From the sequence record MW602648.1: a stretch of DNA of 57,011 nucleotides, one strand, 5' to 3'. This DNA is from Escherichia phage vB_EcoM_fHy-Eco03. Below the pieces are notes generated by a model that worked only from the letters and a program-made list of their open reading frames with translations, was not told the DNA's origin and did not search any database. This document shows, piece by piece, positions 1 to 56,582 of the stretch. How positions within the stretch are numbered: the stretch's first letter is position 1; every line of letters begins with the position of its first letter. The position numbers were made by a program, and so were the translations under genes.

Positions 1-45
1 GGCGCAAAAAGAAAAAAAGCCGGATTGCTTTTGAAATTATAGACA

Positions 46-74
46 TTTACACAAGTCTTAAACTATGTTACAAT
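46..74 (+). promoter_or_regulatory. Sigma70-like promoter (TTTACA-N17-TGtTACAAT) in terminal repeat
   Basis: TTTACA at 46..51, 17-bp spacer, TACAAT at 69..74 preceded by TG at 66..67; about 40 bp upstream of the ATG at 114. Duplicate at 53358..53386. Confidence 0.5.
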
Positions 75-113
75 AGTTATTATTTACAATGTTAAGCACA
101 ATAGGAATTCATC

Positions 114-311
114 ATGAGCTATACTGACCAACAAATTGACACAGCAGCGGTTTTATTGGCACAAGAGGTAGATTTATTGCATTCTTTGATGAATGCTAGT
201 CATGATAGAGCTGAAACTATCAAGAATCAGATACGGGAAATTTGGTCTCAGCAGGTCAGCAACGGTGTATCTTTGGACTTTTTGGTGTGCCGCCTGAGAG
301 GTCAACTGTAA
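114..311 (+). CDS. Hypothetical protein (65 aa)
   Basis: ATG ORF with AGGAA 6 nt upstream; stop overlaps the next start (TAATG). Confidence 0.5.
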   Translation: MSYTDQQIDTAAVLLAQEVDLLHSLMNASHDRAETIKNQIREIWSQQVSNGVSLDFLVCRLRGQL

Positions 312-736
312 TGGTAAACATAAGAAGCAAGGGCCAGAACTTTGAGCGTAAAATGTCGAAAATGTTCAATGAATCGTTCGGGTTATCTACTGAGAGAAAT
401 CTCCAGCAATCTATAAACGGTGGAGATGATTTGATGGGAGTCCCGTTCTTCAGCGTTGAGCTCAAGAAGCACAACACCAAAGCTATCGGGACTTGGTGGA
501 AGCAATGTGCGGAATCAGCACGGCGTCAAAGCAAGATGCCAGTGCTAATCTATGAGATGCCACGGCAAAAGCCCACTGTCGTGATGAGAATTGAGGACGT
601 CAGTCAAGCTTTGGCTGAGGCACCACTGTTGCCAGCGGCTAGTAACAGGCTCTTTGTGGGCTTGGTGGAATTAACATGGGAACAATTTTGCCGGGTCTAC
701 AACTTTTACGTTGCGCCCGGCGTCGAGGTTGCTTAG
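311..736 (+). CDS. Putative PD-(D/E)xK-family nuclease (141 aa)
   Basis: ATG at 311 overlaps the upstream stop. Motif GGDDLMGVPFFSVELKK (D...ELK) resembles the PD-(D/E)xK nuclease signature. Track ORF 242..736 is the same frame with an upstream start. Confidence 0.4.
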   Translation: MVNIRSKGQNFERKMSKMFNESFGLSTERNLQQSINGGDDLMGVPFFSVELKKHNTKAIGTWWKQCAESARRQSKMPVLIYEMPRQKPTVVMRIEDVSQALAEAPLLPAASNRLFVGLVELTWEQFCRVYNFYVAPGVEVA

Positions 737-774
737 GTTGATGCTTGCATCAACACCAGTCAACTGTAGTTGAC
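737..774. terminator. Two adjacent hairpins between convergent genes
   Basis: GTTGATG-cttg-CATCAAC (737..754) and GTCAAC-tgta-GTTGAC (759..774), between the + gene ending at 736 and the - gene ending at 777; no clear U-run. Confidence 0.3.
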
Positions 775-776
775 AC

Positions 777-962
777 TTAGTCTTGTTTCAACTCATCGCA
801 GATAACGCGTTGATTTTGAGCTGGTACAAACCCGAGTTCGAGCAAAGTGTAAGGACTATCGGCGACGCATTGTTCAATGGTAGTCCATTCAGTTTTGGAT
901 TCAATAATTTTGTAACTACAATCATGAGTAGCCACACATGTTGCCAGGATTAAGCCAATCAC
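777..962 (-). CDS. Hypothetical protein (61 aa, GTG start)
   Basis: GTG start overlaps the upstream stop (GTGA); GAAGGAG Shine-Dalgarno upstream. Confidence 0.45.
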   Translation of the reverse strand: MIGLILATCVATHDCSYKIIESKTEWTTIEQCVADSPYTLLELGFVPAQNQRVICDELKQD

Positions 963-1138
963 AAGTAATCTCCTTCAACCAGAAACTCAAACAATTGGTT
1001 GTAAACGTTGCAACCCTTAGCGAAAGAGCTTTCAGCAGGTTTACCATCGCGGACGATCATCATATATTCACCGCCATGAATATCCACCCAGTATTGCATG
1101 CCACCCTTGACAGGGTTACGTTGTAAGAATTTAAACAT
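959..1138 (-). CDS. Hypothetical protein (59 aa), absent from the ORF track
   Basis: Hand-translated: MFKFLQRNPVKGG...VEGDYL. AAGGAG 7 nt upstream of the ATG; start overlaps the upstream stop (TAATG) and stop overlaps the downstream GTG. Confidence 0.5.
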   Translation of the reverse strand: MFKFLQRNPVKGGMQYWVDIHGGEYMMIVRDGKPAESSFAKGCNVYNQLFEFLVEGDYL

Positions 1139-1383
1139 TATTTGCTCCTTACTCCAAGTTTATTCAATAACCACACTGTCATGTCAACCCAGGTTAACGG
1201 TACAGTTTTCGGGGGTTGATAAGACCAGCACTTTCCAGCTCTTTCCGCAATTTCTTCGCGCCTTGCCGCTTGGCGTAATACTGCATCGTCAGAAGTGCCG
1301 GCAGAAAAAATATCGGCAATACCAGATAAATCGCCTCGATGAACACGTCCAGCAAGTTCATGCAGTTGCTCCTCAGAAAACAT
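1138..1383 (-). CDS. Hypothetical protein (81 aa)
   Basis: ATG start overlaps the stop of the upstream small ORF (ATGTTTTCTGA); part of the coupled leftward array. Confidence 0.5.
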   Translation of the reverse strand: MFSEEQLHELAGRVHRGDLSGIADIFSAGTSDDAVLRQAARREEIAERAGKCWSYQPPKTVPLTWVDMTVWLLNKLGVRSK

Positions 1384-1492
1384 AAGACAACACCATTAGA
1401 ATGATGATAAAGACAGCAACGGCTTTCGCCATGCCACGAGATTCATTATACACCGGATTTTCAGTGGTGTACTCAACAACATGCTTTTTCAT
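1373..1492 (-). CDS. Small hydrophobic protein (39 aa), absent from the ORF track
   Basis: Hand-translated: MKKHVVEYTTENPVYNESRGMAKAVAVFIIILMVLSYVF. GGAGG Shine-Dalgarno upstream; hydrophobic C-terminal half suggests a membrane segment. Confidence 0.45.
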   Translation of the reverse strand: MKKHVVEYTTENPVYNESRGMAKAVAVFIIILMVLSYVF

Positions 1493-1549
1493 ACAACCTC
1501 CAGTGTGAGAAATATCAATTGATGGCACCCGCAGATGCCATCTCAGATA

Positions 1550-2122
1550 TTACTCGCCTTCAGTCTCAGATTTTTCTTCAGTCTGAGGTGCTGCGGCTTC
1601 GTAGACCGTCTTACCATCAGTGATTTTACCGGATTTAACATCGTTACGGTAATAACTCATGTAAGACTGTACAACACGTTTTGATTTAACATCATCTTCA
1701 GCCATTTCACAGGCTTTCATGGCATCCGCAAGAGCGAGTTTTGAATCGTCTTTGTCTGCCAAGTTGTAATCTTTGAAGACCGCGTAACAAGTATCTTTGG
1801 TACTCGGTCCTGAAGATTTACGAGTACAACCAGTTGAACCGGAACGACTAGCTTTCTTCACTTCAACATGCTCAACCTCAAGACTTTCAAGTGCCTTATA
1901 CAAAGCAGGCACCAGAACATCCTTGCTGTCTTTGTGGGTGACAGATGCTTCATCATCAAGACTTTTAATCATCTTGACCAGTTGAGCATTTTGGAACTCT
2001 TTGAGAGCGCCTTTCTCAACAACGATGCAACTCATCATGCCTTCCATTGACAGACCATCTTTGATGCCTTCAACAGAAAAAGCGGAAGTTAAGTAAACAT
2101 ACTGAGTGATAGAATTTTCCAT
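1550..2122 (-). CDS. Hypothetical early protein (190 aa)
   Basis: Long ORF with AAGAGGA Shine-Dalgarno upstream; largest ORF in the terminal repeat. Confidence 0.6.
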   Translation of the reverse strand: MENSITQYVYLTSAFSVEGIKDGLSMEGMMSCIVVEKGALKEFQNAQLVKMIKSLDDEASVTHKDSKDVLVPALYKALESLEVEHVEVKKASRSGSTGCTRKSSGPSTKDTCYAVFKDYNLADKDDSKLALADAMKACEMAEDDVKSKRVVQSYMSYYRNDVKSGKITDGKTVYEAAAPQTEEKSETEGE

Positions 2123-2252
2123 GATTTTGTCCTCTTGTTTGTGGTTGACATCATTATAATGTCATGACTTCAGTTGTTTGTACATCTCAAATCACACATT
2201 TTTGTGCAATTTTTATCATGCGGTACGAATTATACCGCATTGTAAAAATTAC

Positions 2253-2453
2253 TCAAGAAATAATTACCTCAGTAACTACTACAGTGTTAGCAGTCACTAA
2301 TGTCAAAACTTTACCAGCTTTTGACCTCACAGCTTTCAACCGTAATTGTGACTGTGTGTAATTATTCCACTCTTCATCACTGAGCACGGTCCTGGTAACT
2401 TCAGGTCGTTCATCTTTGCCAAGCTTCACTACTGTAACTTTGATTAATGGCAT
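2253..2453 (-). CDS. Hypothetical protein (66 aa)
   Basis: ORF packed 4 nt after the upstream gene. Confidence 0.45.
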   Translation of the reverse strand: MPLIKVTVVKLGKDERPEVTRTVLSDEEWNNYTQSQLRLKAVRSKAGKVLTLVTANTVVVTEVIIS

Positions 2454-2456
2454 TGC

Positions 2457-2684
2457 TTAAACCTCAAATTTTGATTCGTCATATTCAGGGTCAGTCACAT
2501 CACGAGTGACACAATTTTGGAGTGCAGTCCAGTATTTTTGGACTTCAGCACCCTCCATGTATAGTGTCCAACCGTGATAGTAACCCTCGAAACTATTCCA
2601 GGTCCGTTCCCAAATCTTTCCGTCTTCGAGCTTATACTCAGTTGGTCTTGAGTCAAACTCACGGATAGTTGTGAATGTTACCAT
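2457..2684 (-). CDS. Hypothetical protein (75 aa)
   Basis: ORF in the coupled leftward array. Confidence 0.45.
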   Translation of the reverse strand: MVTFTTIREFDSRPTEYKLEDGKIWERTWNSFEGYYHGWTLYMEGAEVQKYWTALQNCVTRDVTDPEYDESKFEV

Positions 2685-2753
2685 GCGTTGTTACGCCTCT
2701 GTTGAATAATTTCAATCATGAACTATCACAACTTTGATAGTTCATTGTTGAAA

Positions 2754-2933
2754 CTATTGTAACTTTGTACTAATTTGAATTGTCAATCTAAACTCTTCAA
2801 GTAAGTTATCAATGTTGGATTTATCTTCCACAGCGGTAGAAATTTGATCACTTACAATTTGAGCATTTGACTCAAGAAGTTCAATCAAATGTGTCAATTC
2901 GTCTGCTGTCAATGTCAATTCTTTCATCATCAT
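2754..2933 (-). CDS. Hypothetical acidic protein (59 aa), absent from the ORF track
   Basis: Hand-translated: MMMKELTLTADELTHLIELLESNAQIV... Start overlaps the stop of the upstream ORF (ATGATGA). Confidence 0.4.
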   Translation of the reverse strand: MMMKELTLTADELTHLIELLESNAQIVSDQISTAVEDKSNIDNLLEEFRLTIQISTKLQ

Positions 2934-3100
2934 TCTCCTGAGTTAAATTGTGTGTCAATTTCAATAACTTTGGAACGTACATATTCCAGACAGTCATCAT
3001 AATCGTATGAAGTGTAACTCGGCATTGGAGAATCCAACCCTTCGTTAACATTCCATTCACCTTCATTAACATCAAACCAGATGATTAATTGAGTATGCAT
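2930..3100 (-). CDS. Hypothetical protein (56 aa), absent from the ORF track
   Basis: Hand-translated: MHTQLIIWFDVNEGEWNVNEGLDSPMPSYTSYDYDDCLEYVRSKVIEIDTQFNSGE. AGGAGT Shine-Dalgarno 8 nt upstream of the ATG. Confidence 0.45.
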   Translation of the reverse strand: MHTQLIIWFDVNEGEWNVNEGLDSPMPSYTSYDYDDCLEYVRSKVIEIDTQFNSGE

Positions 3101-3270
3101 TGTTATTACTCCTGTGTTAAGTTGTTTCAGGTGAGACTACTAAACTACTAATAGTCTCTGGATGAAATAACTTCACAGAGAAACAAAACATGTACCAAAT
3201 TGTTAAAGAGCAAAAGACACCATTGACCATCTACCAGATGTGTCTGTTGACTGGTTAAGTACTAACTACA

Positions 3271-3462
3271 CTAAGTAACTACATGCATCCTCCTGAACCG
3301 TTTCTGTGTCAAGTTGTTCAACACATTCAATAAATACATTATGTCAAAGTCCCTGTTGGTTGTACACAATAGAAGTGCAAGTTTGTGCAAGCTTTTAGAA
3401 ATGATAATCATCTGCGGTTGATAGTGATTCTCGTATGCAATTGATATAGTAACGCTCGTCAC
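3271..3462 (-). CDS. Hypothetical protein (GTG start, uncertain)
   Basis: Track ORF; its 5' end overlaps repeat element A, so the start is uncertain. Confidence 0.3.
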   Translation of the reverse strand: MTSVTISIAYENHYQPQMIIISKSLHKLALLLCTTNRDFDIMYLLNVLNNLTQKRFRRMHVVT

Positions 3463-3545
3463 TACTCAGTGTGAAACAGTCGACGGGGGTAAACGTCACA
3501 CACCGGTGCTATATTAGTTCCCCGGCGCAATTTTTATAAAAAATA
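3440..3545. repeat. Imperfect direct repeat element A (about 100 bp)
   Basis: TTGATATAGTAACGCTCGTCACTACTCAGTGTGAAACAGTCGACGGGGGTAAACGTCACACACCGGTGCTATATTAGTTCCCCGGCGCAATTTTTAT aligns with element B 173 bp downstream. Confidence 0.6.
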
Positions 3546-3612
3546 CAATTTCGTTTGTAATCGTAGACATACGGTATAGTTGCGGCCCGGTACCGTCACG
3601 GTGAGTTGTGAT

Positions 3613-3720
3613 TACGATTGTAATGATAACGCACGTTACTATTCACTCTGAAGGGGTGCCGGGGGGTAATTGTCACCTAGGGGTGTTAATTTAAGCCCCG
3701 GCAAATTTTTTATTTTTTTC
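3613..3720. repeat. Imperfect direct repeat element B, spanning the terminal-repeat boundary
   Basis: TTGTAATGATAACGCACGTTACTATTCACTCTGAAGGGGTGCCGGGGGGTAATTGTCACCTAGGGGTGTTAATTTAAGCCCCGGCAAATTTTTTAT; the repeat boundary (3699/3700) falls inside it at CCCC|GGC. Confidence 0.6.
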
Positions 3721-3966: not shown

Positions 3967-4461
3967 ATGGAAATTCAACAGCTTCTGCCATATCCGTACT
4001 ATATAGCTTGTGTCTTCAACCGAGCACAATACGATGAGCTTCGTGCTCAATTCAACTTACCAAGCTTTGGCTACTGGGAAGACCCAGAAGAAGAATGGCC
4101 AGTGGCTTCTGCATCATTCCTTGCACGCAAGGAACACCCTCGTAAACTGGGTATCATGTGCTTTTATGACAAGGATTTTGACATCTGCTCTGTAGCCCAC
4201 GAAGGTGTGCACATAATGTCTGACCTGATGCATCGCCTCGGCATTACCTACGACCCGTTAAACGACGAGCCGTATGCTTATCAGCTCGAGCAAATCATGT
4301 ACTTCGCACGGCATAAATACAACGAGCTTCACAGCGCTATTGAGCACGTTGAAAAGGCTGTTATTGACACAGGTAATCACCCTTTAGTGCTTGAACAGCC
4401 TCAAAATCAGCTCAATATGCTAAATTCGGCCCCTTCAACTGGCTTTCTGGACGGCAAATAA
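3967..4461 (+). CDS. Hypothetical protein with HExxH motif (164 aa)
   Basis: ORF containing HEGVH; first rightward gene after the terminal repeat. A metallopeptidase-like function is speculative. Confidence 0.4.
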   Translation: MEIQQLLPYPYYIACVFNRAQYDELRAQFNLPSFGYWEDPEEEWPVASASFLARKEHPRKLGIMCFYDKDFDICSVAHEGVHIMSDLMHRLGITYDPLNDEPYAYQLEQIMYFARHKYNELHSAIEHVEKAVIDTGNHPLVLEQPQNQLNMLNSAPSTGFLDGK

Positions 4462-4697
4462 TGACTGTAGTTGCACCTGTAAAACGCGAAGTCACTGTAC
4501 ACTACACAGTGCGCATAACTATACCGCGTATTAAAGACCAAGGGCTTCAGCGCGAAGTCATTGATACATGGGCCAAATTCTCCGTCCGGGCAGACCAGAA
4601 GCTTGACGAGGATAAAGCCAGGGCTATCCTGGAAGAGCGTTATATCAATAAACTGGGTGCAACCCACTTCAAATGGCTTAAATTTAAGGTAAAATGA
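4461..4697 (+). CDS. Hypothetical protein (78 aa)
   Basis: ORF coupled to the flanking genes. Confidence 0.4.
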   Translation: MTVVAPVKREVTVHYTVRITIPRIKDQGLQREVIDTWAKFSVRADQKLDEDKARAILEERYINKLGATHFKWLKFKVK

Positions 4698-5368
4698 TGA
4701 TTAATATCATGTTTGCTATGGGCAAAAACGGAGAATTCGGCCGTTCGCTGGAACTCCATAAATCGATTGTTGCCCAGTCTACTGACGAAGAGCTTCGCGC
4801 GCTTCCTAAAAATGGTCTCCCTTGGGTTTGTCGACCTGACATGCTCTTTTTCAGGACTATGACTAATGGTATTGCTTCCGATACAGGCTATAACGCATTT
4901 GAGCAGCTCCGCGGTCAATTTCCCAGCCAGCAGGTAAGCTCGGTAATCAATAACGCAGCCGGAGAGACATCCCAACACAACGTAATATTGGCAGGACGCA
5001 AAACCTGGTTGCAGATGAGCTTACCGCCTTCTCGCTATCGCACCTTTTTGCCCGTCAGCAGACAAGTATTCAAGGATAACGCTTTCTTGACGCTTGCTGA
5101 TATGTGCAAACACTGTGAAGACGCCGGAAATGACGTCTGGATTGTGGGTGGCAAGGAATTGATTATGTCAGCGCTGGTCGAGCACTCGCTGGGTGACCTC
5201 CGTGTTGACAACATGTTCATCAGTACAATAGCCAATGCGGGTCCGAGTGACATCCTACTGGACCGAGAAAAAATAATGGCGTACATAGATAGTGACTTCG
5301 CGTATAATGATGAATATGCTGAAAACAACGAAGTACTCATCCAACGATTTAGAGGCAAACACAAATGA
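4694..5368 (+). CDS. Dihydrofolate reductase-like protein
   Basis: DHFR-like motifs recalled from E. coli FolA and T4 Frd: LPW...FF..T, ILAGRKTW...LP..R, VWIVGGKELI. Carries insertions; not aligned. Confidence 0.5.
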   Translation: MMINIMFAMGKNGEFGRSLELHKSIVAQSTDEELRALPKNGLPWVCRPDMLFFRTMTNGIASDTGYNAFEQLRGQFPSQQVSSVINNAAGETSQHNVILAGRKTWLQMSLPPSRYRTFLPVSRQVFKDNAFLTLADMCKHCEDAGNDVWIVGGKELIMSALVEHSLGDLRVDNMFISTIANAGPSDILLDREKIMAYIDSDFAYNDEYAENNEVLIQRFRGKHK

Positions 5369-5871
5369 ACATCATAGTTGAGGGACCTGACAATGCTGGT
5401 AAATCTACACTTATTAAGTTCCTTGAATCTAATTTGCGCCGCAGTGTTATTCATAATACTGTTGACAAGGATTCGACATCGGTTCTGGGTAAACAAGCTC
5501 AAGAATTATCGCTTGAAGGTAACATTATTTATGACCGCAGCGCTGTTATATCTGAGTATATCTACTGCCTGGTTCTTCAACGTGCGCCTGTAGTCCCTTT
5601 TAATATATCTCATGTAGCAGACTTATGCGATAATGCTATTGTCGTGTTCTGTCTGCCGCCGTTAGATAAGGTTTTGGCCACAACTAAAGACGAAATGCCT
5701 GGTGTGGTCGAAAATCTTGAAAAGCTATATAACCAGTATGACAACTTGATTGATGAGTTAGTTATGATGGGTAAACAGTTCTTTGTATATGACTGGACCA
5801 TTGAAGAAGATGGTGCAGAAGCAGCACTAGAATACATCAATGAACGTAACGATAAGGAGTGGACTAAATGA
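5365..5871 (+). CDS. P-loop deoxynucleoside monophosphate kinase (thymidylate-kinase-like)
   Basis: N-terminal Walker A IVEGPDNAGKST, as in dNMP and thymidylate kinases; size about 168 aa. Confidence 0.5.
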   Translation: MNIIVEGPDNAGKSTLIKFLESNLRRSVIHNTVDKDSTSVLGKQAQELSLEGNIIYDRSAVISEYIYCLVLQRAPVVPFNISHVADLCDNAIVVFCLPPLDKVLATTKDEMPGVVENLEKLYNQYDNLIDELVMMGKQFFVYDWTIEEDGAEAALEYINERNDKEWTK

Positions 5872-6590
5872 CTAATAAAGTAGTTGTGCAAAAGGTTGTA
5901 GGTGAGATTTCTATCCGTTGTGAAGCCTCATCCGACCGCCGCGATGTTAGCATGCAAGACTTGCTGAATATCGCAAATATGGGTACAGGTAACGAAGATA
6001 CAGTGACAGGGCGTGAAGGCGTCAACGTATCTATTACTATGTCTGGACCTGATGCACCTGCTGAACCGCTGTTCACACCAGTAGAAGAGCCTCGTCCACG
6101 TGGTATCAGCTATGGTGCAATCAAAAAAGCTGATGACTTACGACGTGAGCAGGAAATTGAAAAGCTTGCGGTAGAGCGTCGTACAGAAGCAGTAAACATT
6201 TTCCGTCGTCGTTTATACGATGCAATGCACGGTTACGAGATGAATCCTGACGGCTTCAGAGCTGCATTGGAAAATGTTATCTGTTCTGCAGCTGACACTT
6301 ATCGTAGCATGCTTACGTCTGCCGATAAAGACAGAGCTGAACGCGACTTGATGAAAACAAACCTCGGTAAACTGAATACTGAGAACATGGAGTTGCAGCG
6401 GCAGGTAGATGATGCTGTTCGTGCTATGCAAAAACAGGCTGAAGACTTCAACAGACAAGCTGATGTTCATGCACAAACTGTTGATAACATCCTTGCAACG
6501 CGTGTCGCAACAGAAAAAGAGCTTGAAGAAGCTAACCGTAAAATCAAGCGCATGAAAGATTATGCCGTACGTTTGAATAGTATTTGCTAA
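5868..6590 (+). CDS. Hypothetical protein (240 aa)
   Basis: ORF; C-terminal half looks coiled-coil. Confidence 0.45.
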   Translation: MTNKVVVQKVVGEISIRCEASSDRRDVSMQDLLNIANMGTGNEDTVTGREGVNVSITMSGPDAPAEPLFTPVEEPRPRGISYGAIKKADDLRREQEIEKLAVERRTEAVNIFRRRLYDAMHGYEMNPDGFRAALENVICSAADTYRSMLTSADKDRAERDLMKTNLGKLNTENMELQRQVDDAVRAMQKQAEDFNRQADVHAQTVDNILATRVATEKELEEANRKIKRMKDYAVRLNSIC

Positions 6591-6880
6591 TGGACTTATT
6601 CGACTTAGTTGATAACCCACAAGTAGGACAGTCGGCTGAGAAGAAGCCCTTTAACTGGGAAGAGTTCAAAGCTGGCAAACCTGCTATATCTCGCTCAGGT
6701 GAGATAGCTTACTTTGGTGGTGAATACACACATCCCTTGGCAAGTAAGGACCGTTTTATAGCTATCATGACTGTTCCGGACCATGCTATAGTCAAATATG
6801 GTAAAGAAACAATGCCGTACGTGATTGATAATCGTGGTTACTTTGAAGGAATGGCTCCTTTGCTGGTAGAAATGGCATAA
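6584..6880 (+). CDS. Hypothetical protein (98 aa)
   Basis: ORF. Confidence 0.4.
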   Translation: MLMDLFDLVDNPQVGQSAEKKPFNWEEFKAGKPAISRSGEIAYFGGEYTHPLASKDRFIAIMTVPDHAIVKYGKETMPYVIDNRGYFEGMAPLLVEMA

Positions 6881-7016: not shown

Positions 7017-7045
7017 TTTACATTTCCTCAAGTCCTCGTTATAAT
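7017..7045 (+). promoter_or_regulatory. Sigma70-like promoter (TTTACA-N17-TATAAT) upstream of the packaging/head operon
   Basis: TTTACA 7017..7022, 17-bp spacer, TATAAT 7040..7045; ATG of the first structural gene at 7076. Confidence 0.5.
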
Positions 7046-33985: not shown

Positions 33986-35953
33986 TTAATGGGCCTCATC
34001 CCAGTTATTTCCTATCTGAGCATCTGTCAGAACTGGTACGCGAAGCGGTAACACTGTTTCCATAACCCGAACAAAGTCTTTAAATCCTGACTTGGCGCTG
34101 TCAGTGTCCGGAATAGAGAAGTTTAATTCATCGTGCACGGTTAAACGAGGTACACCAATCTCGTCAAAGTAACCGTCCTCATAACCTTTCAGCATCGCAG
34201 CTTTCATCTGGTCTGCAGAAGAACCCTGCAGGACTCGGTTGATAGCTTTGTGGGTATCGGCTAGTTTAATATTGTAGCCGTACTCTTCTCGCGCTTTATC
34301 CAGCGGTAAAGGCATCTTACCAAATCCACCACGTTTTGGTACCCATTTATCAAACCAGGTTTTGCGCCCCATAAAGGTTTCAACATAACCCTGCGAGTAG
34401 CATAGCTCCTCATAGTATTTCATTGTCGCACCAATGAACGGGGCACCTTTGTGGTATGCTTCAAGTATTGGTTTAGCTTCGTCTGGAGTCATTGCCAGCT
34501 TACGGGCCAAAGCATTCAGCATCATGCCATAGAGCAAACCAAAGTTAATTGTCTTAGCCGGTTTACGCTCTATAATGTGACCTGAGGCTTCCTTGATAAT
34601 GTCGACCATAACATTGTGGTAATCTGCTTCCGGGTTAGCCGCGAAAATTGCTCGTAACTCATCAGCGCCTGGGCCGATTGCAAAATGCGCCATGAATCGA
34701 TATTCAATTTGGGCGTAGTCGGCGGAAGCCCATTTGTGTCCGTAGTCCGGTACGAAACAAGAACGAACGAGTGGTCCCAATATTTTGTGTCGAGACGGTA
34801 TATTCTGCAGATTAGGGTCAGATGAGCTAAACCGACCACTAACGGTGCCACCGTCATCACCGCGCATTTGATGGAATTGACCGTGAAGGAAGCCATTGTT
34901 ATTTAACCCCAGTATGTAACCACGAATAAACGTGGATTGTATTTTCTCAAAAGACTTAATCTCCGTAACTAACTGAGCGAACGGATGATGTAAGCCTGCC
35001 AGGAAGTCAGCACCAAAGGAAGGGTTACCTTTCTCTGTCTTGCCGTATTCCAGACCTAAATGGTCAAAAGCTAACGCCAGGTCACTGCCTGAGTTAACGT
35101 TTATGCTAAAGCCAAGTTGAGAACGAATCTCCTGATGCATTTTGGCAATTTCTTGGTCCAGCCTGTCATCAGCTTTCTTGGCAGCATCAAGGTCAACTCG
35201 TACACCTGCAAGACGCATCTTAATCATCAGCGGAATCAGCTTTGTCTCCATCATGAAGACGTCCATCAGCTTCCACTTATTAAGTTGCGCCCATTGTTTT
35301 TTCAGTACGTGGATTGGCAAGTCAGCATCTGACTCAGCGTAATAACCCACAAGACGAGGTGGTGTTTTGTAGATGTAGCCACGTGCCTCTCCGTTAGGTT
35401 TACAACCATATGCTTCTGCAATCCATTCGTACATTTCCGACGAGTCTTTACCTTCGCCTACATACTTTTGGCCCAGTCCTTCAAGTGCGACCCTTGCACC
35501 CGGATTGAGAAGAGCTTCGGCAAATTGAACGTCAAACGTGAGCCCTTGTACTTCAACCCCTTCTGCCTTAAGCCAGCCCAAATCGTATGTAATGTTAGCA
35601 CCGACTTTAACTTGCCCCGGTCTGCCGAGCTCACGCTTGAGCCATCCCAATACTTCATAAGCTGGCAGATTATCCTCTGCGCCGAGCTCATGTCTGATGG
35701 GATAGTAAGCCTTGAACCCGTTGTCAGTAGCGATACTAACTCCAACGATGTGACCTTCCCCTCTCGCCCAACCAGGACCAGCTGTGAGGAGGCCAGGGTC
35801 CCATGTCTCACAGTCAAGGCCAATAATCTTTGCCGATGATAAATCCGGGTAATGCGCGCGCGGCCGCCATCCAGTATCTCTGACGTAAGGGATAGGCCTG
35901 TGAATCGGTTTAACATTCTTAGCTCCTTCAAACTCGTCAAAAAGAAAACTCAT
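33986..35953 (-). CDS. DNA polymerase, family A, with 3'-5' exonuclease domain
   Basis: Exo I motif IIGLDCETWD; motif A DYAQIEYRFMAH; motif B RKPAKTINFGLLYGM; motif C VHDE. Confidence 0.9.
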   Translation of the reverse strand: MSFLFDEFEGAKNVKPIHRPIPYVRDTGWRPRAHYPDLSSAKIIGLDCETWDPGLLTAGPGWARGEGHIVGVSIATDNGFKAYYPIRHELGAEDNLPAYEVLGWLKRELGRPGQVKVGANITYDLGWLKAEGVEVQGLTFDVQFAEALLNPGARVALEGLGQKYVGEGKDSSEMYEWIAEAYGCKPNGEARGYIYKTPPRLVGYYAESDADLPIHVLKKQWAQLNKWKLMDVFMMETKLIPLMIKMRLAGVRVDLDAAKKADDRLDQEIAKMHQEIRSQLGFSINVNSGSDLALAFDHLGLEYGKTEKGNPSFGADFLAGLHHPFAQLVTEIKSFEKIQSTFIRGYILGLNNNGFLHGQFHQMRGDDGGTVSGRFSSSDPNLQNIPSRHKILGPLVRSCFVPDYGHKWASADYAQIEYRFMAHFAIGPGADELRAIFAANPEADYHNVMVDIIKEASGHIIERKPAKTINFGLLYGMMLNALARKLAMTPDEAKPILEAYHKGAPFIGATMKYYEELCYSQGYVETFMGRKTWFDKWVPKRGGFGKMPLPLDKAREEYGYNIKLADTHKAINRVLQGSSADQMKAAMLKGYEDGYFDEIGVPRLTVHDELNFSIPDTDSAKSGFKDFVRVMETVLPLRVPVLTDAQIGNNWDEAH

Positions 35954-36982: not shown

Positions 36983-37912
36983 TTAAACGGCCATTTGAAC
37001 TTTGATGTTAGCCTGTGGCTTATACTCATCAATCATATCTTGCACATCGGCAACCTGGAAGTCTGTCAACGGAACGTCTTCAATTGACTTGATAGACGGA
37101 CGGTTATCAGATGCAGGGTCATGGCAATCATGGTCTTTGAACAGACGTTTGCGGAACTGTTCAACTGCGTCGAGTGAGTTATTATACAGGTGGTAATCAC
37201 CCAAAGTAAACAACAAATCACCTGGGCGTTTACCTGTCTGAGCGGCCAGCATGATGAGCAGCAACTGGTGCAGCAGAATGTCATGAGGCAGACCCAGCAG
37301 AACATCAGCAGAACGCATATGGAACATCAGGTCCAGCTCGTTCTTTTCGTTTACAAAACACTGGAAGCCATGATAGCAAGGCGGCAGTGCCATATCTGCA
37401 AACTCTTCAGGGTTCCATGCCGTTACATACATACGGCGGTCAGCAGGATTAGTCTTCAGCGTTTCAATCAAACGCTCCAGCTGAGTTGTATACTCAGGAA
37501 CCTGATAACCAACAGGGTCACCGTACGTTTGGCCTTCAACCTTTACGCCGCAGATAAAGGGTTTAACCCATTGGGCGCCATACACTGGTCCCAAATCCCG
37601 ATTGTCAGGAGTTCCCCATTTGGCATTGGCAGCTTGCAGATTAGCTTCCCACCAATTGCATCCATGCCGTTTAAGTTCATCCACGTTAGTAATTCCGTTA
37701 ATGAAGCAGTAAAGCTCAGCAGCCACGGCCTTAATATTAACGGGCTTGAATAGCGGCACCATGAGCTTATTGTGGGTAAACTTAAGTCGAGCGCTAAAAC
37801 CGAAGCTGCGCTTAGTACCAACACCAGTACGATCGTTACTGCTCTCTCCCCCGGCTGTGAGCTCATTGAATAGGGTCTCCATCACATCGTCAACAGTATT
37901 AAAGGTGCGCAT
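36983..37912 (-). CDS. Thymidylate synthase-family enzyme, probably cytosine-specific (dCMP hydroxymethylase or methyltransferase candidate)
   Basis: Hand-aligned to E. coli ThyA from memory: NDRTG, DLGPVYG.QW, catalytic PPC (ALPPCYH), R-S-x-D, GD.HLY and C-terminal ...MAV. The residue matching ThyA Asn177 (PFNIAS) is Asp (PHDILL). ATG at 37912 overlaps the MazG stop. Confidence 0.8.
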   Translation of the reverse strand: MRTFNTVDDVMETLFNELTAGGESSNDRTGVGTKRSFGFSARLKFTHNKLMVPLFKPVNIKAVAAELYCFINGITNVDELKRHGCNWWEANLQAANAKWGTPDNRDLGPVYGAQWVKPFICGVKVEGQTYGDPVGYQVPEYTTQLERLIETLKTNPADRRMYVTAWNPEEFADMALPPCYHGFQCFVNEKNELDLMFHMRSADVLLGLPHDILLHQLLLIMLAAQTGKRPGDLLFTLGDYHLYNNSLDAVEQFRKRLFKDHDCHDPASDNRPSIKSIEDVPLTDFQVADVQDMIDEYKPQANIKVQMAV

Positions 37913-38514
37913 TATACATCCATCTCCATTTGTCCGCCTTTGGTCTGGTGCCACTCGACCACTTTATGAATGTCAGGTGCTGTCCAGCCTTCTGGCTTAA
38001 CGATGTCCTGACATGATTTGTGTTTGCTATCGCTTGCATCAGGTTTAGCACGTTCTTTCGCCATGTTGGCTTTTTGTACTTCGTCCCATGCTTCATCGAA
38101 TGGCCAGTTGTTATTAGCACACCATACGAAGATGTGATTAACCAGGCTTGCAAGGTGCTTGCAGTGAGTTGCTTCATCGTCAGTAAAATAGGCACGAAGC
38201 TCTTTTGCATTGAAGCGGTTCATGAATGAACATGGCTCAATGCCAGGCTGTACAGGATAATCGAAGTCATTGGTAAACCAGTGAACTTCATCGTACAGAT
38301 ACAGTGTACCAACAGCGATATAAACTGTATCAACCAGTGCATCCAGGAATTTACCCTTGTCATTTTCGTCCAAAGCTTCCTGGATTTCGTCTAGCTCTTC
38401 TACCAGACGGTCGTAGCGAAGTTTGAATTCTGGTTTACCACCCATGCTAAGTGGCTTGAGGTCAAACTTATTATGGAAAGCGATAACATCGCTTGCAGCT
38501 TTACTGAAATGCAT
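37912..38514 (-). CDS. MazG-like nucleoside triphosphate pyrophosphohydrolase
   Basis: All-alpha NTP-PPase motif EELDEIQEA...D; coupled to the thymidylate-synthase-family gene. Confidence 0.55.
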   Translation of the reverse strand: MHFSKAASDVIAFHNKFDLKPLSMGGKPEFKLRYDRLVEELDEIQEALDENDKGKFLDALVDTVYIAVGTLYLYDEVHWFTNDFDYPVQPGIEPCSFMNRFNAKELRAYFTDDEATHCKHLASLVNHIFVWCANNNWPFDEAWDEVQKANMAKERAKPDASDSKHKSCQDIVKPEGWTAPDIHKVVEWHQTKGGQMEMDV

Positions 38515-42004: not shown

Positions 42005-42877
42005 TTATAAAGAGAAGGCTACTGCTGGTCCATCATCCTTTCGTGGGTATACATCAGCCATTGTGTAATCCCCACAAGCTGCCATCTGAGTTGCGATGGT
42101 TTCGAGATTGTGTTCATGCTTGGTGCAGTACCACACCTTGCCGCTTACAGGTTTACTGTAGGCACAGGTACGGCAATTCCTGTCTGGTGCCGCTCCCTTG
42201 TTGCAGATGTGTGTAAACTCACACATACGGCATTCCCACCACAGCGGTGATTCACTGATGCGCGGCATATCCAAACCAGACTCTGCTTCAATAACACTCT
42301 TAGCCCGGTCAAGTATAATGTCTGCAGACAGATTATCACGGTGTACAATCTCTATGTACAGCTCATCCGTGTTCTTATTGATTGCCATGTACACACACTT
42401 ATTCAGATTGAGTAAGTGCATATATACTTGCATCTGGTCATAGTGCACGGGCTTACACTCTTTTACCTTATGCTTAGCAAACTCCTTAAACGATTTGTCT
42501 CCATGAGTTTTAAACTCCAACAGGAACCATTCATCGTCTATCTTCGCCACACCATCGCATGACCCTGAGAAGATACCGTTAAACGCTGACACTCGCCATT
42601 GTTTATTGGTCTTAGGGTTTACAGGATAAAGCTCCTGCGCAATTGGTTTAAGCCATTCGAGGAACCGTACTTCTTCCCGTGAACCTCGGTCAAACAATCG
42701 AAGCTGCTTGGCATTAAACTTTTCTTTGTACGACCAGTGCAGCACATGCCACAAATAACGATAGCACTTATTACCAATTTGTGACGCACCCAGGTGACCA
42801 CGTCGCTCCTCCTTCTCATGGGCTTCAACAATCTTAACATCAATTCGCTTCTTCAGCGTTTCGGCCGTAATACTCAT
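42005..42877 (-). CDS. Cas4/RecB-like PD-(D/E)xK exonuclease with Cys cluster
   Basis: One N-terminal Cys (KCYRYLWH) plus C-terminal CRMCEFTHIC...CRTC, the Cas4-type arrangement. Start placed at the internal ATG (42877) with AGGGG Shine-Dalgarno; the track ORF extends to 42925. Confidence 0.45.
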   Translation of the reverse strand: MSITAETLKKRIDVKIVEAHEKEERRGHLGASQIGNKCYRYLWHVLHWSYKEKFNAKQLRLFDRGSREEVRFLEWLKPIAQELYPVNPKTNKQWRVSAFNGIFSGSCDGVAKIDDEWFLLEFKTHGDKSFKEFAKHKVKECKPVHYDQMQVYMHLLNLNKCVYMAINKNTDELYIEIVHRDNLSADIILDRAKSVIEAESGLDMPRISESPLWWECRMCEFTHICNKGAAPDRNCRTCAYSKPVSGKVWYCTKHEHNLETIATQMAACGDYTMADVYPRKDDGPAVAFSL

Positions 42878-43388
42878 TATAGCCCCTGTTAGCAAACTGA
42901 CCATGCATTTGAATACGCATTTCATCCAGCCAGTTTATTAGTTTAGTCCTGTTGTCTTCTGTCGCCAACATTGTCTTGGTCTTGCGTTTGCCGTCCTTAG
43001 TAATGCTGGCAACATAATATGGTTTACCTTTTAGTGTTACTCTTGATAACCCTTTTACACCAGATGTGTTATTAAGATATATATTTGTGTTGCAACGGTT
43101 ATCGCTACGTGTTGCTGCTCTGACATATTTATTGTCCTCTCGCGTTAGACTCGGATGGTCAACTTCCGGTGGTTCATACCCAAACTGCATGAAGTAGATT
43201 ACACGATGTACAAGGCACTGTCTCCCTTTAATGCGCACTGTTTTGTAACCGTCTTTACGTAAAGAACCGGCTTCCGTGCCGGCTTTAACTTTATTATTGG
43301 CCCTGTTAATCTTGTTCATTAACCGGCCATCTTCAACATAGAACAGCTCTGACAACTCAGCTTGTGTAGCCGGAATCGGCACAAACAT
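42840..43388 (-). CDS. HNH homing endonuclease
   Basis: GYKTVRIKGRQCLVHRVIY...EVDH...NRCNT pattern typical of phage HNH homing endonucleases; overlaps the neighbouring genes. Confidence 0.55.
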   Translation of the reverse strand: MFVPIPATQAELSELFYVEDGRLMNKINRANNKVKAGTEAGSLRKDGYKTVRIKGRQCLVHRVIYFMQFGYEPPEVDHPSLTREDNKYVRAATRSDNRCNTNIYLNNTSGVKGLSRVTLKGKPYYVASITKDGKRKTKTMLATEDNRTKLINWLDEMRIQMHGQFANRGYNEYYGRNAEEAN

Positions 43389-43806
43389 ATTCTACTCCTG
43401 AATCAGTTAAAAAAGCCTTTGCCTCGAGCATAGATGCATGCCATTTTGAGGCAGAATAAGCGTCTAGAGAGCTAGTCACTAGCCTTATAATAGGTATATT
43501 CGCCTTAAGCATTTTAGAGCACTCTAGGCATGGCGGATATGTGACATAAACGGTCACACCTTCTGTCAGTTGTGCCTTTAAATTAGCCATACAATTAACT
43601 TCTGCATGGATTGTATACACATTCTTCAGTTCCGCTGGGATAACCGACAAGCCATCCAGCTGACGAGGGAATCCATTGTAGCCTGTTGACAGTATGCGAT
43701 TGTCTTGTGATACTATAACACATCCAACTTTACGCTTATCATCTTTGGACCAGCTACCTATAAGGTGAGCCAGCTCCATAAATCGGCTATCCCAAAGGTT
43801 CTGCAT
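43357..43806 (-). CDS. dCMP deaminase
   Basis: Zinc-binding motifs HAE (IHAEVNCMA) and PCxxC (PPCLECSKM); AGGAG Shine-Dalgarno before the ATG at 43806. Confidence 0.8.
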   Translation of the reverse strand: MQNLWDSRFMELAHLIGSWSKDDKRKVGCVIVSQDNRILSTGYNGFPRQLDGLSVIPAELKNVYTIHAEVNCMANLKAQLTEGVTVYVTYPPCLECSKMLKANIPIIRLVTSSLDAYSASKWHASMLEAKAFLTDSGVEYVCADSGYTS

Positions 43807-43824
43807 GTTAAAGCTCCTGCGCAC

Positions 43825-53203: not shown

Positions 53204-53357
53204 TATATAAAAGATAGAGAGTATTTAAAACAAGTACTTAGGCATCCTTATTCATGTAATCCGGTTATATGTATTATATAATTATCAGATTGGATAAGAA
53301 AAAGTTATTGCCGGCGCAAAAAGAAAAAAAGCCGGATTGCTTTTGAAATTATAGACA

Positions 53358-53386
53358 TTTACACAAGTCTTAAACTATGTTACAAT
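53358..53386 (+). promoter_or_regulatory. Copy of the terminal-repeat promoter (TTTACA-N17-TGtTACAAT)
   Basis: Duplicate of 46..74. Confidence 0.5.
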
Positions 53387-53425
53387 AGTTATTATTTACA
53401 ATGTTAAGCACAATAGGAATTCATC

Positions 53426-53623
53426 ATGAGCTATACTGACCAACAAATTGACACAGCAGCGGTTTTATTGGCACAAGAGGTAGATTTATTGCATTCTTTG
53501 ATGAATGCTAGTCATGATAGAGCTGAAACTATCAAGAATCAGATACGGGAAATTTGGTCTCAGCAGGTCAGCAACGGTGTATCTTTGGACTTTTTGGTGT
53601 GCCGCCTGAGAGGTCAACTGTAA
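53426..53623 (+). CDS. Hypothetical protein (duplicate of 114..311)
   Basis: Identical copy in the right terminal repeat. Confidence 0.5.
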   Translation: MSYTDQQIDTAAVLLAQEVDLLHSLMNASHDRAETIKNQIREIWSQQVSNGVSLDFLVCRLRGQL

Positions 53624-54048
53624 TGGTAAACATAAGAAGCAAGGGCCAGAACTTTGAGCGTAAAATGTCGAAAATGTTCAATGAATCGTTCGGGTTATCT
53701 ACTGAGAGAAATCTCCAGCAATCTATAAACGGTGGAGATGATTTGATGGGAGTCCCGTTCTTCAGCGTTGAGCTCAAGAAGCACAACACCAAAGCTATCG
53801 GGACTTGGTGGAAGCAATGTGCGGAATCAGCACGGCGTCAAAGCAAGATGCCAGTGCTAATCTATGAGATGCCACGGCAAAAGCCCACTGTCGTGATGAG
53901 AATTGAGGACGTCAGTCAAGCTTTGGCTGAGGCACCACTGTTGCCAGCGGCTAGTAACAGGCTCTTTGTGGGCTTGGTGGAATTAACATGGGAACAATTT
54001 TGCCGGGTCTACAACTTTTACGTTGCGCCCGGCGTCGAGGTTGCTTAG
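53623..54048 (+). CDS. Putative PD-(D/E)xK-family nuclease (duplicate of 311..736)
   Basis: Identical copy in the right terminal repeat. Confidence 0.4.
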   Translation: MVNIRSKGQNFERKMSKMFNESFGLSTERNLQQSINGGDDLMGVPFFSVELKKHNTKAIGTWWKQCAESARRQSKMPVLIYEMPRQKPTVVMRIEDVSQALAEAPLLPAASNRLFVGLVELTWEQFCRVYNFYVAPGVEVA

Positions 54049-54088
54049 GTTGATGCTTGCATCAACACCAGTCAACTGTAGTTGACAC

Positions 54089-54274
54089 TTAGTCTTGTTT
54101 CAACTCATCGCAGATAACGCGTTGATTTTGAGCTGGTACAAACCCGAGTTCGAGCAAAGTGTAAGGACTATCGGCGACGCATTGTTCAATGGTAGTCCAT
54201 TCAGTTTTGGATTCAATAATTTTGTAACTACAATCATGAGTAGCCACACATGTTGCCAGGATTAAGCCAATCAC
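54089..54274 (-). CDS. Hypothetical protein (duplicate of 777..962)
   Basis: Identical copy in the right terminal repeat. Confidence 0.45.
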   Translation of the reverse strand: MIGLILATCVATHDCSYKIIESKTEWTTIEQCVADSPYTLLELGFVPAQNQRVICDELKQD

Positions 54275-54450
54275 AAGTAATCTCCTTCAACCAGAAACTC
54301 AAACAATTGGTTGTAAACGTTGCAACCCTTAGCGAAAGAGCTTTCAGCAGGTTTACCATCGCGGACGATCATCATATATTCACCGCCATGAATATCCACC
54401 CAGTATTGCATGCCACCCTTGACAGGGTTACGTTGTAAGAATTTAAACAT
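54271..54450 (-). CDS. Hypothetical protein (duplicate of 959..1138)
   Basis: Identical copy in the right terminal repeat. Confidence 0.5.
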   Translation of the reverse strand: MFKFLQRNPVKGGMQYWVDIHGGEYMMIVRDGKPAESSFAKGCNVYNQLFEFLVEGDYL

Positions 54451-54695
54451 TATTTGCTCCTTACTCCAAGTTTATTCAATAACCACACTGTCATGTCAAC
54501 CCAGGTTAACGGTACAGTTTTCGGGGGTTGATAAGACCAGCACTTTCCAGCTCTTTCCGCAATTTCTTCGCGCCTTGCCGCTTGGCGTAATACTGCATCG
54601 TCAGAAGTGCCGGCAGAAAAAATATCGGCAATACCAGATAAATCGCCTCGATGAACACGTCCAGCAAGTTCATGCAGTTGCTCCTCAGAAAACAT
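54450..54695 (-). CDS. Hypothetical protein (duplicate of 1138..1383)
   Basis: Identical copy in the right terminal repeat. Confidence 0.5.
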   Translation of the reverse strand: MFSEEQLHELAGRVHRGDLSGIADIFSAGTSDDAVLRQAARREEIAERAGKCWSYQPPKTVPLTWVDMTVWLLNKLGVRSK

Positions 54696-54804
54696 AAGAC
54701 AACACCATTAGAATGATGATAAAGACAGCAACGGCTTTCGCCATGCCACGAGATTCATTATACACCGGATTTTCAGTGGTGTACTCAACAACATGCTTTT
54801 TCAT
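54685..54804 (-). CDS. Small hydrophobic protein (duplicate of 1373..1492)
   Basis: Identical copy in the right terminal repeat. Confidence 0.45.
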   Translation of the reverse strand: MKKHVVEYTTENPVYNESRGMAKAVAVFIIILMVLSYVF

Positions 54805-54861
54805 ACAACCTCCAGTGTGAGAAATATCAATTGATGGCACCCGCAGATGCCATCTCAGATA

Positions 54862-55434
54862 TTACTCGCCTTCAGTCTCAGATTTTTCTTCAGTCTGAGG
54901 TGCTGCGGCTTCGTAGACCGTCTTACCATCAGTGATTTTACCGGATTTAACATCGTTACGGTAATAACTCATGTAAGACTGTACAACACGTTTTGATTTA
55001 ACATCATCTTCAGCCATTTCACAGGCTTTCATGGCATCCGCAAGAGCGAGTTTTGAATCGTCTTTGTCTGCCAAGTTGTAATCTTTGAAGACCGCGTAAC
55101 AAGTATCTTTGGTACTCGGTCCTGAAGATTTACGAGTACAACCAGTTGAACCGGAACGACTAGCTTTCTTCACTTCAACATGCTCAACCTCAAGACTTTC
55201 AAGTGCCTTATACAAAGCAGGCACCAGAACATCCTTGCTGTCTTTGTGGGTGACAGATGCTTCATCATCAAGACTTTTAATCATCTTGACCAGTTGAGCA
55301 TTTTGGAACTCTTTGAGAGCGCCTTTCTCAACAACGATGCAACTCATCATGCCTTCCATTGACAGACCATCTTTGATGCCTTCAACAGAAAAAGCGGAAG
55401 TTAAGTAAACATACTGAGTGATAGAATTTTCCAT
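54862..55434 (-). CDS. Hypothetical early protein (duplicate of 1550..2122)
   Basis: Identical copy in the right terminal repeat. Confidence 0.6.
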   Translation of the reverse strand: MENSITQYVYLTSAFSVEGIKDGLSMEGMMSCIVVEKGALKEFQNAQLVKMIKSLDDEASVTHKDSKDVLVPALYKALESLEVEHVEVKKASRSGSTGCTRKSSGPSTKDTCYAVFKDYNLADKDDSKLALADAMKACEMAEDDVKSKRVVQSYMSYYRNDVKSGKITDGKTVYEAAAPQTEEKSETEGE

Positions 55435-55564
55435 GATTTTGTCCTCTTGTTTGTGGTTGACATCATTATAATGTCATGACTTCAGTTGTTTGTACATCTC
55501 AAATCACACATTTTTGTGCAATTTTTATCATGCGGTACGAATTATACCGCATTGTAAAAATTAC

Positions 55565-55765
55565 TCAAGAAATAATTACCTCAGTAACTACTACAGTGTT
55601 AGCAGTCACTAATGTCAAAACTTTACCAGCTTTTGACCTCACAGCTTTCAACCGTAATTGTGACTGTGTGTAATTATTCCACTCTTCATCACTGAGCACG
55701 GTCCTGGTAACTTCAGGTCGTTCATCTTTGCCAAGCTTCACTACTGTAACTTTGATTAATGGCAT
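55565..55765 (-). CDS. Hypothetical protein (duplicate of 2253..2453)
   Basis: Identical copy in the right terminal repeat. Confidence 0.45.
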   Translation of the reverse strand: MPLIKVTVVKLGKDERPEVTRTVLSDEEWNNYTQSQLRLKAVRSKAGKVLTLVTANTVVVTEVIIS

Positions 55766-55768
55766 TGC

Positions 55769-55996
55769 TTAAACCTCAAATTTTGATTCGTCATATTCAG
55801 GGTCAGTCACATCACGAGTGACACAATTTTGGAGTGCAGTCCAGTATTTTTGGACTTCAGCACCCTCCATGTATAGTGTCCAACCGTGATAGTAACCCTC
55901 GAAACTATTCCAGGTCCGTTCCCAAATCTTTCCGTCTTCGAGCTTATACTCAGTTGGTCTTGAGTCAAACTCACGGATAGTTGTGAATGTTACCAT
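55769..55996 (-). CDS. Hypothetical protein (duplicate of 2457..2684)
   Basis: Identical copy in the right terminal repeat. Confidence 0.45.
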   Translation of the reverse strand: MVTFTTIREFDSRPTEYKLEDGKIWERTWNSFEGYYHGWTLYMEGAEVQKYWTALQNCVTRDVTDPEYDESKFEV

Positions 55997-56065
55997 GCGT
56001 TGTTACGCCTCTGTTGAATAATTTCAATCATGAACTATCACAACTTTGATAGTTCATTGTTGAAA

Positions 56066-56245
56066 CTATTGTAACTTTGTACTAATTTGAATTGTCAATC
56101 TAAACTCTTCAAGTAAGTTATCAATGTTGGATTTATCTTCCACAGCGGTAGAAATTTGATCACTTACAATTTGAGCATTTGACTCAAGAAGTTCAATCAA
56201 ATGTGTCAATTCGTCTGCTGTCAATGTCAATTCTTTCATCATCAT
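56066..56245 (-). CDS. Hypothetical protein (duplicate of 2754..2933)
   Basis: Identical copy in the right terminal repeat. Confidence 0.4.
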   Translation of the reverse strand: MMMKELTLTADELTHLIELLESNAQIVSDQISTAVEDKSNIDNLLEEFRLTIQISTKLQ

Positions 56246-56412
56246 TCTCCTGAGTTAAATTGTGTGTCAATTTCAATAACTTTGGAACGTACATATTCCA
56301 GACAGTCATCATAATCGTATGAAGTGTAACTCGGCATTGGAGAATCCAACCCTTCGTTAACATTCCATTCACCTTCATTAACATCAAACCAGATGATTAA
56401 TTGAGTATGCAT
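56242..56412 (-). CDS. Hypothetical protein (duplicate of 2930..3100)
   Basis: Identical copy in the right terminal repeat. Confidence 0.45.
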   Translation of the reverse strand: MHTQLIIWFDVNEGEWNVNEGLDSPMPSYTSYDYDDCLEYVRSKVIEIDTQFNSGE

Positions 56413-56582
56413 TGTTATTACTCCTGTGTTAAGTTGTTTCAGGTGAGACTACTAAACTACTAATAGTCTCTGGATGAAATAACTTCACAGAGAAACAAAA
56501 CATGTACCAAATTGTTAAAGAGCAAAAGACACCATTGACCATCTACCAGATGTGTCTGTTGACTGGTTAAGTACTAACTACA

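Follow-up and report, generated by a model that had tools for sequence, protein, structure and literature searches.

Overlapping genes for a dihydrofolate reductase and a compact nucleotide kinase

The genome of Escherichia phage vB_EcoM_fHy-Eco03 (record MW602648.1; the 57,011-nucleotide stretch analyzed here is called the window) encodes on its plus strand a dihydrofolate reductase (DHFR; 4694-5368, 224 amino acids) and a P-loop nucleotide kinase (5365-5871, 168 amino acids), the stop codon of the first gene and the start codon of the second overlapping as ATGA. A previous reading, made from the sequence only, had described a DHFR-like gene coupled to a P-loop kinase and had seen in them parts of a DNA modification pathway. 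Both identifications held: all quoted motifs are present, and matches to DHFR and to nucleotide kinase folds were found for the respective genes. Taken as a whole, the window represents the genome of a Rosemountvirus-type myophage; its closest record is Salmonella phage KE25, with about 92% identity around the DHFR/kinase region.

The reductase scores 30.7 bits against Pfam DHFR_1 (PF00186; gathering cut-off 25) and matches PHROG 316 (E 7e-23); PF00186 was present in all 18 of its homologues. Comparison of the family profile with the PDB gave the DHFR-thymidylate synthase (TS) of Plasmodium falciparum as the top match (E 1e-5). In this alignment LPWkC..DMlfFR stands against LPWKCNSLDMKYFR, the catalytic Asp included, and D49 of the window protein corresponds to P. 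falciparum Asp54. Alignment with E. coli FolA and the DHFR of phage AXL1 revealed W22, D27, F31, T35, G43, T46, P53, R57, G95 and G96 (FolA numbering) as invariant. The substrate-site set W22, F31 and R57 is kept together with the catalytic acid Asp27, as are the NADPH-binding motifs GxxT (G43-T46) and GG (G95-G96), which read AGRKTW and IVGG. Compared to FolA the protein carries two large insertions, at about residues 11-38 and 58-94, and the second coincides with the site of the insert that Plasmodium DHFR itself has. An AlphaFold model of the reductase reached a predicted local distance difference test (pLDDT) score of 50.4 from a shallow alignment of 14 sequences, too poor to serve as evidence on the fold. 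From the profile and residue evidence we conclude that the gene encodes a real dihydrofolate reductase, which is predicted to be functional.

For the kinase, a structure model of high confidence was obtained (pLDDT 90.5), and structure comparison identified thymidylate kinases (Tmk) as the nearest characterized enzymes. A P-loop and a DR(Y/H) motif, the marks of the Tmk fold, are both found. The P-loop of the family has the Tmk form EGxDxxGK[ST] with an invariant Asp9; in human TMPK the P-loop Asp contacts the 3'-OH. Further residues kept in the family are the DR motif, S63/E64/Y67, C96, P98 and Y125. While fold, P-loop and DR motif are common to this protein and canonical Tmk (PF02223, TIGR00041), the latter has about 205-215 residues against 168, and the window protein has no conserved P-loop or lid arginine. 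Between P-loop and DR motif it lacks about 40 residues relative to Tmk, and it scores far below the cut-offs of PF02223 (17.0 bits, cut-off 27) and TIGR00041 (18.6 bits, cut-off 83.25). A sequence search of the PDB gave nothing significant; YorR of the B. subtilis prophage SPbeta (PDB 2axp/3kb2) is 17% identical to the kinase. The sequence-only reading had compared the enzyme to the deoxynucleoside monophosphate (dNMP) kinase of phage T4. This comparison stands for a P-loop enzyme, here with a thymidylate kinase fold, and falls for kinship, since the protein is no homologue of T4 gp1 (PDB 1dek/1del). On the basis of model and motifs, the protein is a predicted minimal dNMP kinase of the thymidylate kinase fold, YorR-like and not a canonical Tmk. 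It belongs to a family of 2,701 cluster representatives at E <= 1e-10 (clusters at 50% identity) and is a candidate kinase for 5-methyl-deoxycytidine monophosphate (5-methyl-dCMP), possibly for thymidine monophosphate (dTMP) too.

A ThyA homologue with Asp177 and further genes on the minus strand

About 31 kb from the DHFR/kinase pair, on the minus strand, lies the only ThyA-family gene that we found in the window (36983-37912). Its product scores 202 bits against Pfam Thymidylat_synt and, despite an Asp at position 177, passes the TS equivalog TIGR03284 (160.5 against 108.35 bits), which accounts for its routine annotation as thymidylate synthase. HMMER alignment to solved TS structures revealed an otherwise canonical TS scaffold with two exchanges, Asn177 to Asp and His147 to Tyr (PPCYH against PPCHC, GLPHD against GVPFN; C-terminal tail IKVQMAV). 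The enzyme keeps E58, R126/R127, L143, the nucleophile C146, D169, Y209 and the TS tail, with DMALPPC around L143 and RSAD around D169. Position 143 of T4 gp42, which MAFFT misplaced, was computed from the raw sequences as Cys-3.

Published rules allow this signature to be read. Positions 177 and 147 are the best separators of cytosine-modified from unmodified viral contigs, and N177D turns the TS of E. coli and L. casei into dCMP methylases (PMC8670742 and work cited therein). If position 143 holds a bulky hydrophobic residue, water is kept out and the product is methyl, while Asp or Glu at this position leads to hydroxymethyl; D169N marks 5-hydroxy-dCMP synthases (PMC13326640). When T4 gp1 was co-expressed, 5-methyl-deoxycytidine (5mdC) was made in vivo by five of seven N177D homologues from deaminase-adjacent genes and by the Xp12 enzyme (bioRxiv 10.1101/2024.12.05.627091). 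By these rules the TS homologue is a predicted dCMP methyltransferase (5-methyl-dCMP synthase), and a reaction of this type yields dihydrofolate. The earlier suggestion that a DHFR implies a folate-oxidizing methyl transfer is in line with this prediction, as the window's Asp177 enzyme has L143, D169 and the TS tail.

Further genes on this strand are likely candidates for the same pathway. Adjoining the TS homologue, a MazG/PRA-PH-type nucleotide pyrophosphohydrolase (37912-38514) was recognized by Pfam PRA-PH (E 2.5e-9) and by PHROG 671 "nucleotide pyrophosphohydrolase" (E 1e-24). It is a homologue of AXL1 gp64 and a candidate dCTPase that would supply dCMP and deplete dCTP. In contigs with modified cytosine, the PRA-PH domain is reported to be typically found next to deaminase and TS (bioRxiv 10.1101/2024.12.05.627091). 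A dCMP-deaminase-family protein is encoded at 43357-43824 (Pfam dCMP_cyt_deam_1, 72.8 bits; PHROG 174, E 5e-38; 38% identity to AXL1 gp62), a candidate for making deoxythymidine (dT) nucleotides from 5-methyl-deoxycytidine nucleotides, or dUMP. A family A DNA polymerase (Pol A) with a 3'-5' exonuclease domain lies at 33986-35953 (Pfam DNA_pol_A, 229 bits). Among the ORFs scanned in the replication and early regions, no DNA (cytosine) methyltransferase or glycosyltransferase was detected, and neither is listed in the KE25 pipeline annotation.

The ORF at 42840-43388 on the same strand was considered as the deaminase and ruled out, as it encodes an HNH endonuclease (PHROG 99, E 7e-37). It adjoins the deaminase gene and has no counterpart in the KE25 annotation. 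The deaminase itself is only 53% identical to that of KE25, whereas the other compared pathway genes reach 89-99%. Together this resembles a deaminase replacement associated with a homing endonuclease.

Genomic partners of the kinase family

Homologues of the kinase are present in very different phages. In Gordonia phage GTE2, Serratia phage Opt-155 and Pseudomonas phage PMBT14 the kinase gene is followed, in this order, by genes for a MazG/dUTPase-like pyrophosphohydrolase, a hypothetical protein, a divergent TS homologue, a deaminase and a DNA polymerase. The TS homologues of these cassettes were missed by tblastn with the window enzyme and were found by an iterative hidden Markov model search. 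When IMG/VR was searched with the profile of the kinase, 80 loci were obtained. Among these loci, which are phylogenetically non-independent, 68 combine the kinase gene with a full-length ThyA-family ORF no more than 10 kb away, and 66 have a deaminase. The Asp177 type is included in 62 of the 68, and only canonical Asn177 TS was found in the other six. The partners of the kinase family are thus, in general, enzymes whose products are 5-substituted pyrimidine dNMPs. This co-occurrence fits a kinase role on the products of such enzymes, without fixing the substrate in the window phage. Only in the lineage of Rosemountvirus and Loughboroughvirus, whose TS homologue keeps the full scaffold, is a DHFR found no more than 10 kb away from the kinase.

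The largest class of partners (about 53 ORFs, three reference phages included) carries E58H, R127Q, L143R, H147T/S, N177D and Y209F; the remaining classes have T4-like hydroxymethylase signatures (9), are canonical TS (7) or are of the window's type. Members of the E58H/R127Q/L143R clade lack the TS tail (for example L002:33637-34503, L003:34347-35216, L004:34252-35094 and about 50 IMG/VR loci within L010-L084) and are always found in a cassette with the kinase, a protein of about 270 residues that matches PHROG 13667 or 34294 and is of unknown function, a deaminase and Pol A. Their closest solved structure is the CMP hydroxymethylase MilA, and we found no report on their product in the literature.

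In a group of closely related metagenome contigs of 32-35 kb, one member (L038:3952-4749) encodes a TS with N177D and H147P on a canonical scaffold, tail included, that is otherwise identical within the group. Its six siblings (L044, L053, L054, L059, L063 and L064) keep Asn177 and His147. The difference appears to reflect a natural change of TS specificity in the recent past. Residue 64 of the kinase was considered as a mark of specificity, because it is Glu with Asp177 partners and Gly with canonical ones. The Gly cases form one lineage and the Asp177 sibling L038 has Gly as well, which leaves a weak hint only.

A proposed cytosine methylation pathway and its alternatives

We consider it moderately likely that the DHFR, the kinase and three minus-strand genes form a dispersed pathway like that of phage Xp12, by which cytosine is replaced with 5-methylcytosine (5mC) before replication. 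In such a pathway the MazG-like pyrophosphohydrolase would convert dCTP to dCMP, and the Asp177 ThyA homologue would turn dCMP and methylene-tetrahydrofolate into 5-methyl-dCMP and dihydrofolate. The phage DHFR would reduce dihydrofolate to tetrahydrofolate and so keep the folate pool from exhaustion. The kinase would bring 5-methyl-dCMP, possibly also dTMP, to the diphosphate, from which the host nucleoside diphosphate kinase would make the triphosphate for insertion by the phage Pol A. Part of the 5-methyl-deoxycytidine pool may be turned into dT nucleotides by the deaminase. Several inferences, independent of one another, speak for the earlier interpretation that DHFR and kinase complete a modification pathway, although substrates, methyl product and the resulting DNA composition are predicted from gene and residue content.

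Relatives provide the closest link to the DNA itself. The TS signature of the window is also found in BP63 (Rosemountvirus) and ZCSE2 (Loughboroughvirus), and Asn177 to Asp is fixed across this lineage in the phages examined. ZCSE2 is 99% identical to S144, which carries an orthologue of the kinase (70% identity, TM-score 0.94). Only SspI and PacI, whose sites consist of A/T only, cut the DNA of S144, and none of seven enzymes with G/C in the site did so; the authors of that study took this to mean a modification on cytosine and could not find the responsible gene (PMC7432712). In the papers searched on Rosemountvirus and Loughboroughvirus modification we found no identification of the modified base.

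A system with the same design is known from the Xp12 group (Pamexvirus-Bosavirus; AXL1, PaMx74), where cytosine is fully replaced by 5mC through a TS-homologue dCMP methylase. AXL1 and the window have in common a DHFR, a dCMP-deaminase-family protein, an Asp177 TS homologue, a MazG-like pyrophosphohydrolase, Pol A, a helicase and a Cas4-like nuclease. Each of the eight phages in the group has a DHFR gene, the AXL1 enzyme (gp61) is functional, and AXL1 DNA is completely cut only by enzymes with A/T-only sites (PMC9206674), a restriction pattern shared with S144. The window proteins are 25-38% identical to those of AXL1. While DHFR, deaminase, TS homologue and pyrophosphohydrolase are contiguous in AXL1, DHFR and kinase are far from the TS homologue in the window; the AXL1 enzyme has N143, P147 and no tail, whereas that of the window is near-canonical. 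The hosts and virions differ as well, the window phage being a myovirus of enterobacteria and the AXL1 group siphoviruses of Xanthomonas or Pseudomonas. The window would thus represent a distant or convergent version of the Xp12-group design with dispersed genes.

T4 follows the same logic with a dCTPase (gene 56), a ThyA-family enzyme for C5 modification of dCMP (gene 42), the gene 1 kinase, the cd deaminase and the frd DHFR. Unlike the window enzyme, the gene 42 product has Asp143, no TS tail and a hydroxymethyl product, and the T4 DHFR serves a separate bona fide TS (td), whereas the window has one ThyA-family gene. The T4 kinase gp1, co-expressed in the published in vivo 5mdC assays, is not a homologue of the YorR-like kinase described here; published in vivo assays have filled the kinase step with gp1 or with homologues of it from RB69 and DLP3. 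Possible counterparts of the window kinase are YorR and the "nucleotide kinase" genes that neighbor TS homologues in RB69 (gp45), DLP3 (gp78) and RL38J1 (gp214). It is possible, and we put this forward tentatively, that the YorR-like mini thymidylate kinase family is a dedicated kinase for 5-substituted pyrimidine dNMPs in the ThyA-homologue DNA modification of phages outside the T4 group, and that the DHFR with its insertions may have a second role as a protein of the virion.

Several observations weigh against the proposed methylation pathway. The kinase fails the curated cut-offs for Tmk and deoxynucleoside kinases (dNKs), and a catalytic arginine was not found: P-loop position 10 is G or N, and there is no conserved basic residue at 100-113 among 151 representatives. 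The kinase family is absent from the examined 50 kb of AXL1, so that a 5mC pathway does not require this kinase, and its occurrence beside canonical Asn177 TS in six related loci means that the window enzyme may be a plain dTMP kinase. The rule for the methyl product is imperfect, as the AXL1 TS has N143 and no tail, yet the TS homologue of its close relative Xp12 made 5mdC, and His147 to Tyr in the window enzyme may bear on the product. DHFR is also found in phages with an ordinary TS such as T4, and its presence alone does not discriminate. The restriction test of S144 comprised nine enzymes and did not identify the type of modification. Finally, the S144 orthologue of the reductase (gp03, putative DHFR) was detected by electrospray ionization tandem mass spectrometry of purified virions with three unique peptides and 25% coverage (PMC7432712). 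This detection hints at another role of DHFR. The large insertions of the family could serve such a virion role, or the detection in S144 could be due to carry-over. According to an old claim, the DHFR of T4 is a component of the baseplate.

The genes could also serve an ordinary supply of thymidylate, in which the deaminase provides dUMP, TS makes dTMP, DHFR recycles folate and the kinase boosts dTTP as a dTMP kinase, the modification of S144 being due to another gene. Relatives are so annotated in GenBank, and TS, DHFR and Tmk of S144 were annotated as exactly such a dTTP pathway (PMC7432712). The passed TS equivalog, the six loci with canonical TS and the fold of the kinase, nearest to thymidylate kinases among characterized enzymes, speak in the same direction. 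We nevertheless regard this explanation as unlikely, because the exchange of Asn177 to Asp makes the E. coli and L. casei enzymes dCMP methylases (PMC8670742), is fixed in the lineage and is not accompanied by a second ThyA gene in the window, and because no DNA methyltransferase that would explain the resistance of S144 DNA at G/C-containing sites was detected in the scanned regions. A modified cytosine with a product other than methyl, such as 5-hydroxymethyl-deoxycytidine or another C5 adduct, seems improbable to a similar degree. Here the kinase would act as T4 gp1 does on hm-dCMP, and the DHFR would have a role apart from the modification, in general folate supply, in trimethoprim tolerance or as a component of the virion. 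Most TS homologues that partner the kinase are without a TS tail and have hydroxymethylase-like or unknown signatures, and both the H147Y exchange and the DHFR in S144 virions would be compatible with such a product. The window enzyme, in contrast, keeps D169, and it also has L143 and the C-terminal tail, by which water is shut out and hydride transfer becomes possible. Neither a glycosyltransferase nor any other transferase was detected in the scanned ORFs or the KE25 annotation, and DHFR stands beside the kinase specifically in the Rosemountvirus/Loughboroughvirus lineage. That the kinase is no dNMP kinase at all, rather a deoxynucleoside salvage kinase or an enzyme that phosphorylates DNA or some other substrate, we judge very improbable, although some homologues in Gordonia phages are annotated as "polynucleotide kinase". 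The dNKs use a Glu between P-loop and DR motif as catalytic base; no such conserved Glu is present, the P-loop with its invariant Asp9 has the thymidylate kinase form, and the constant genomic partner is an enzyme producing 5-substituted dNMPs.

While the identities of these genes were already annotated in relatives, their link to a cytosine methylation pathway in the Rosemountvirus/Loughboroughvirus group is new, as is the placement of the "thymidylate kinase" in a large uncharacterized family tied to base-modifying TS homologues. The proposed methylation pathway offers a genetic explanation for the cytosine modification of S144, which was left open in 2020, and it would extend to the examined phages of both genera (BP63, ZCSE2, KE25 and the window phage), all of which have the TS signature in common. 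Phages of these genera are under development for biocontrol of Salmonella and E. coli. A full substitution by 5mC, if true, would affect host range, through evasion of ordinary restriction and sensitivity to methyl-dependent restriction, as well as restriction mapping and sequencing. Annotation pipelines systematically name likely dCMP methylases of this type "thymidylate synthase". Furthermore, a phage-borne DHFR may raise the trimethoprim tolerance of infected cells, as was shown for AXL1.

DHFR and kinase are part of a block of six tightly packed ORFs on the plus strand (3967-6880) with overlaps of 1-7 nt at the junctions. The four other ORFs match PHROGs of unknown function. The block is the counterpart of "cluster A" in S144 (PMC7432712) and sits just upstream of the terminase and structural genes. 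Promoter and terminator scans of the DHFR/kinase region remained at chance level, so that the early operon named in the sequence-only reading was not established and early timing of these genes is presumptive. The top sigma-70-like site of the region (7017-7045, plus strand; TTTACA, 17 nt spacer, TATAAT; 11 of 12 matches) is placed after this block and ahead of a small ORF and the terminase genes, a position which suggests that the DHFR/kinase and terminase blocks are separate transcription units. Positions 1-3699 of the window are identical to 53313-57011 (3,699 bases), which gives a unit genome of 53,312 bp. The identical ends are a long direct terminal repeat, or else they come from a wrapped assembly. 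In S144 the physical genome ends were mapped to the gap directly before the DHFR cluster (PMC7432712), which fits a terminal repeat that stops about 270 bp before the ORF starting at 3967 in the window.
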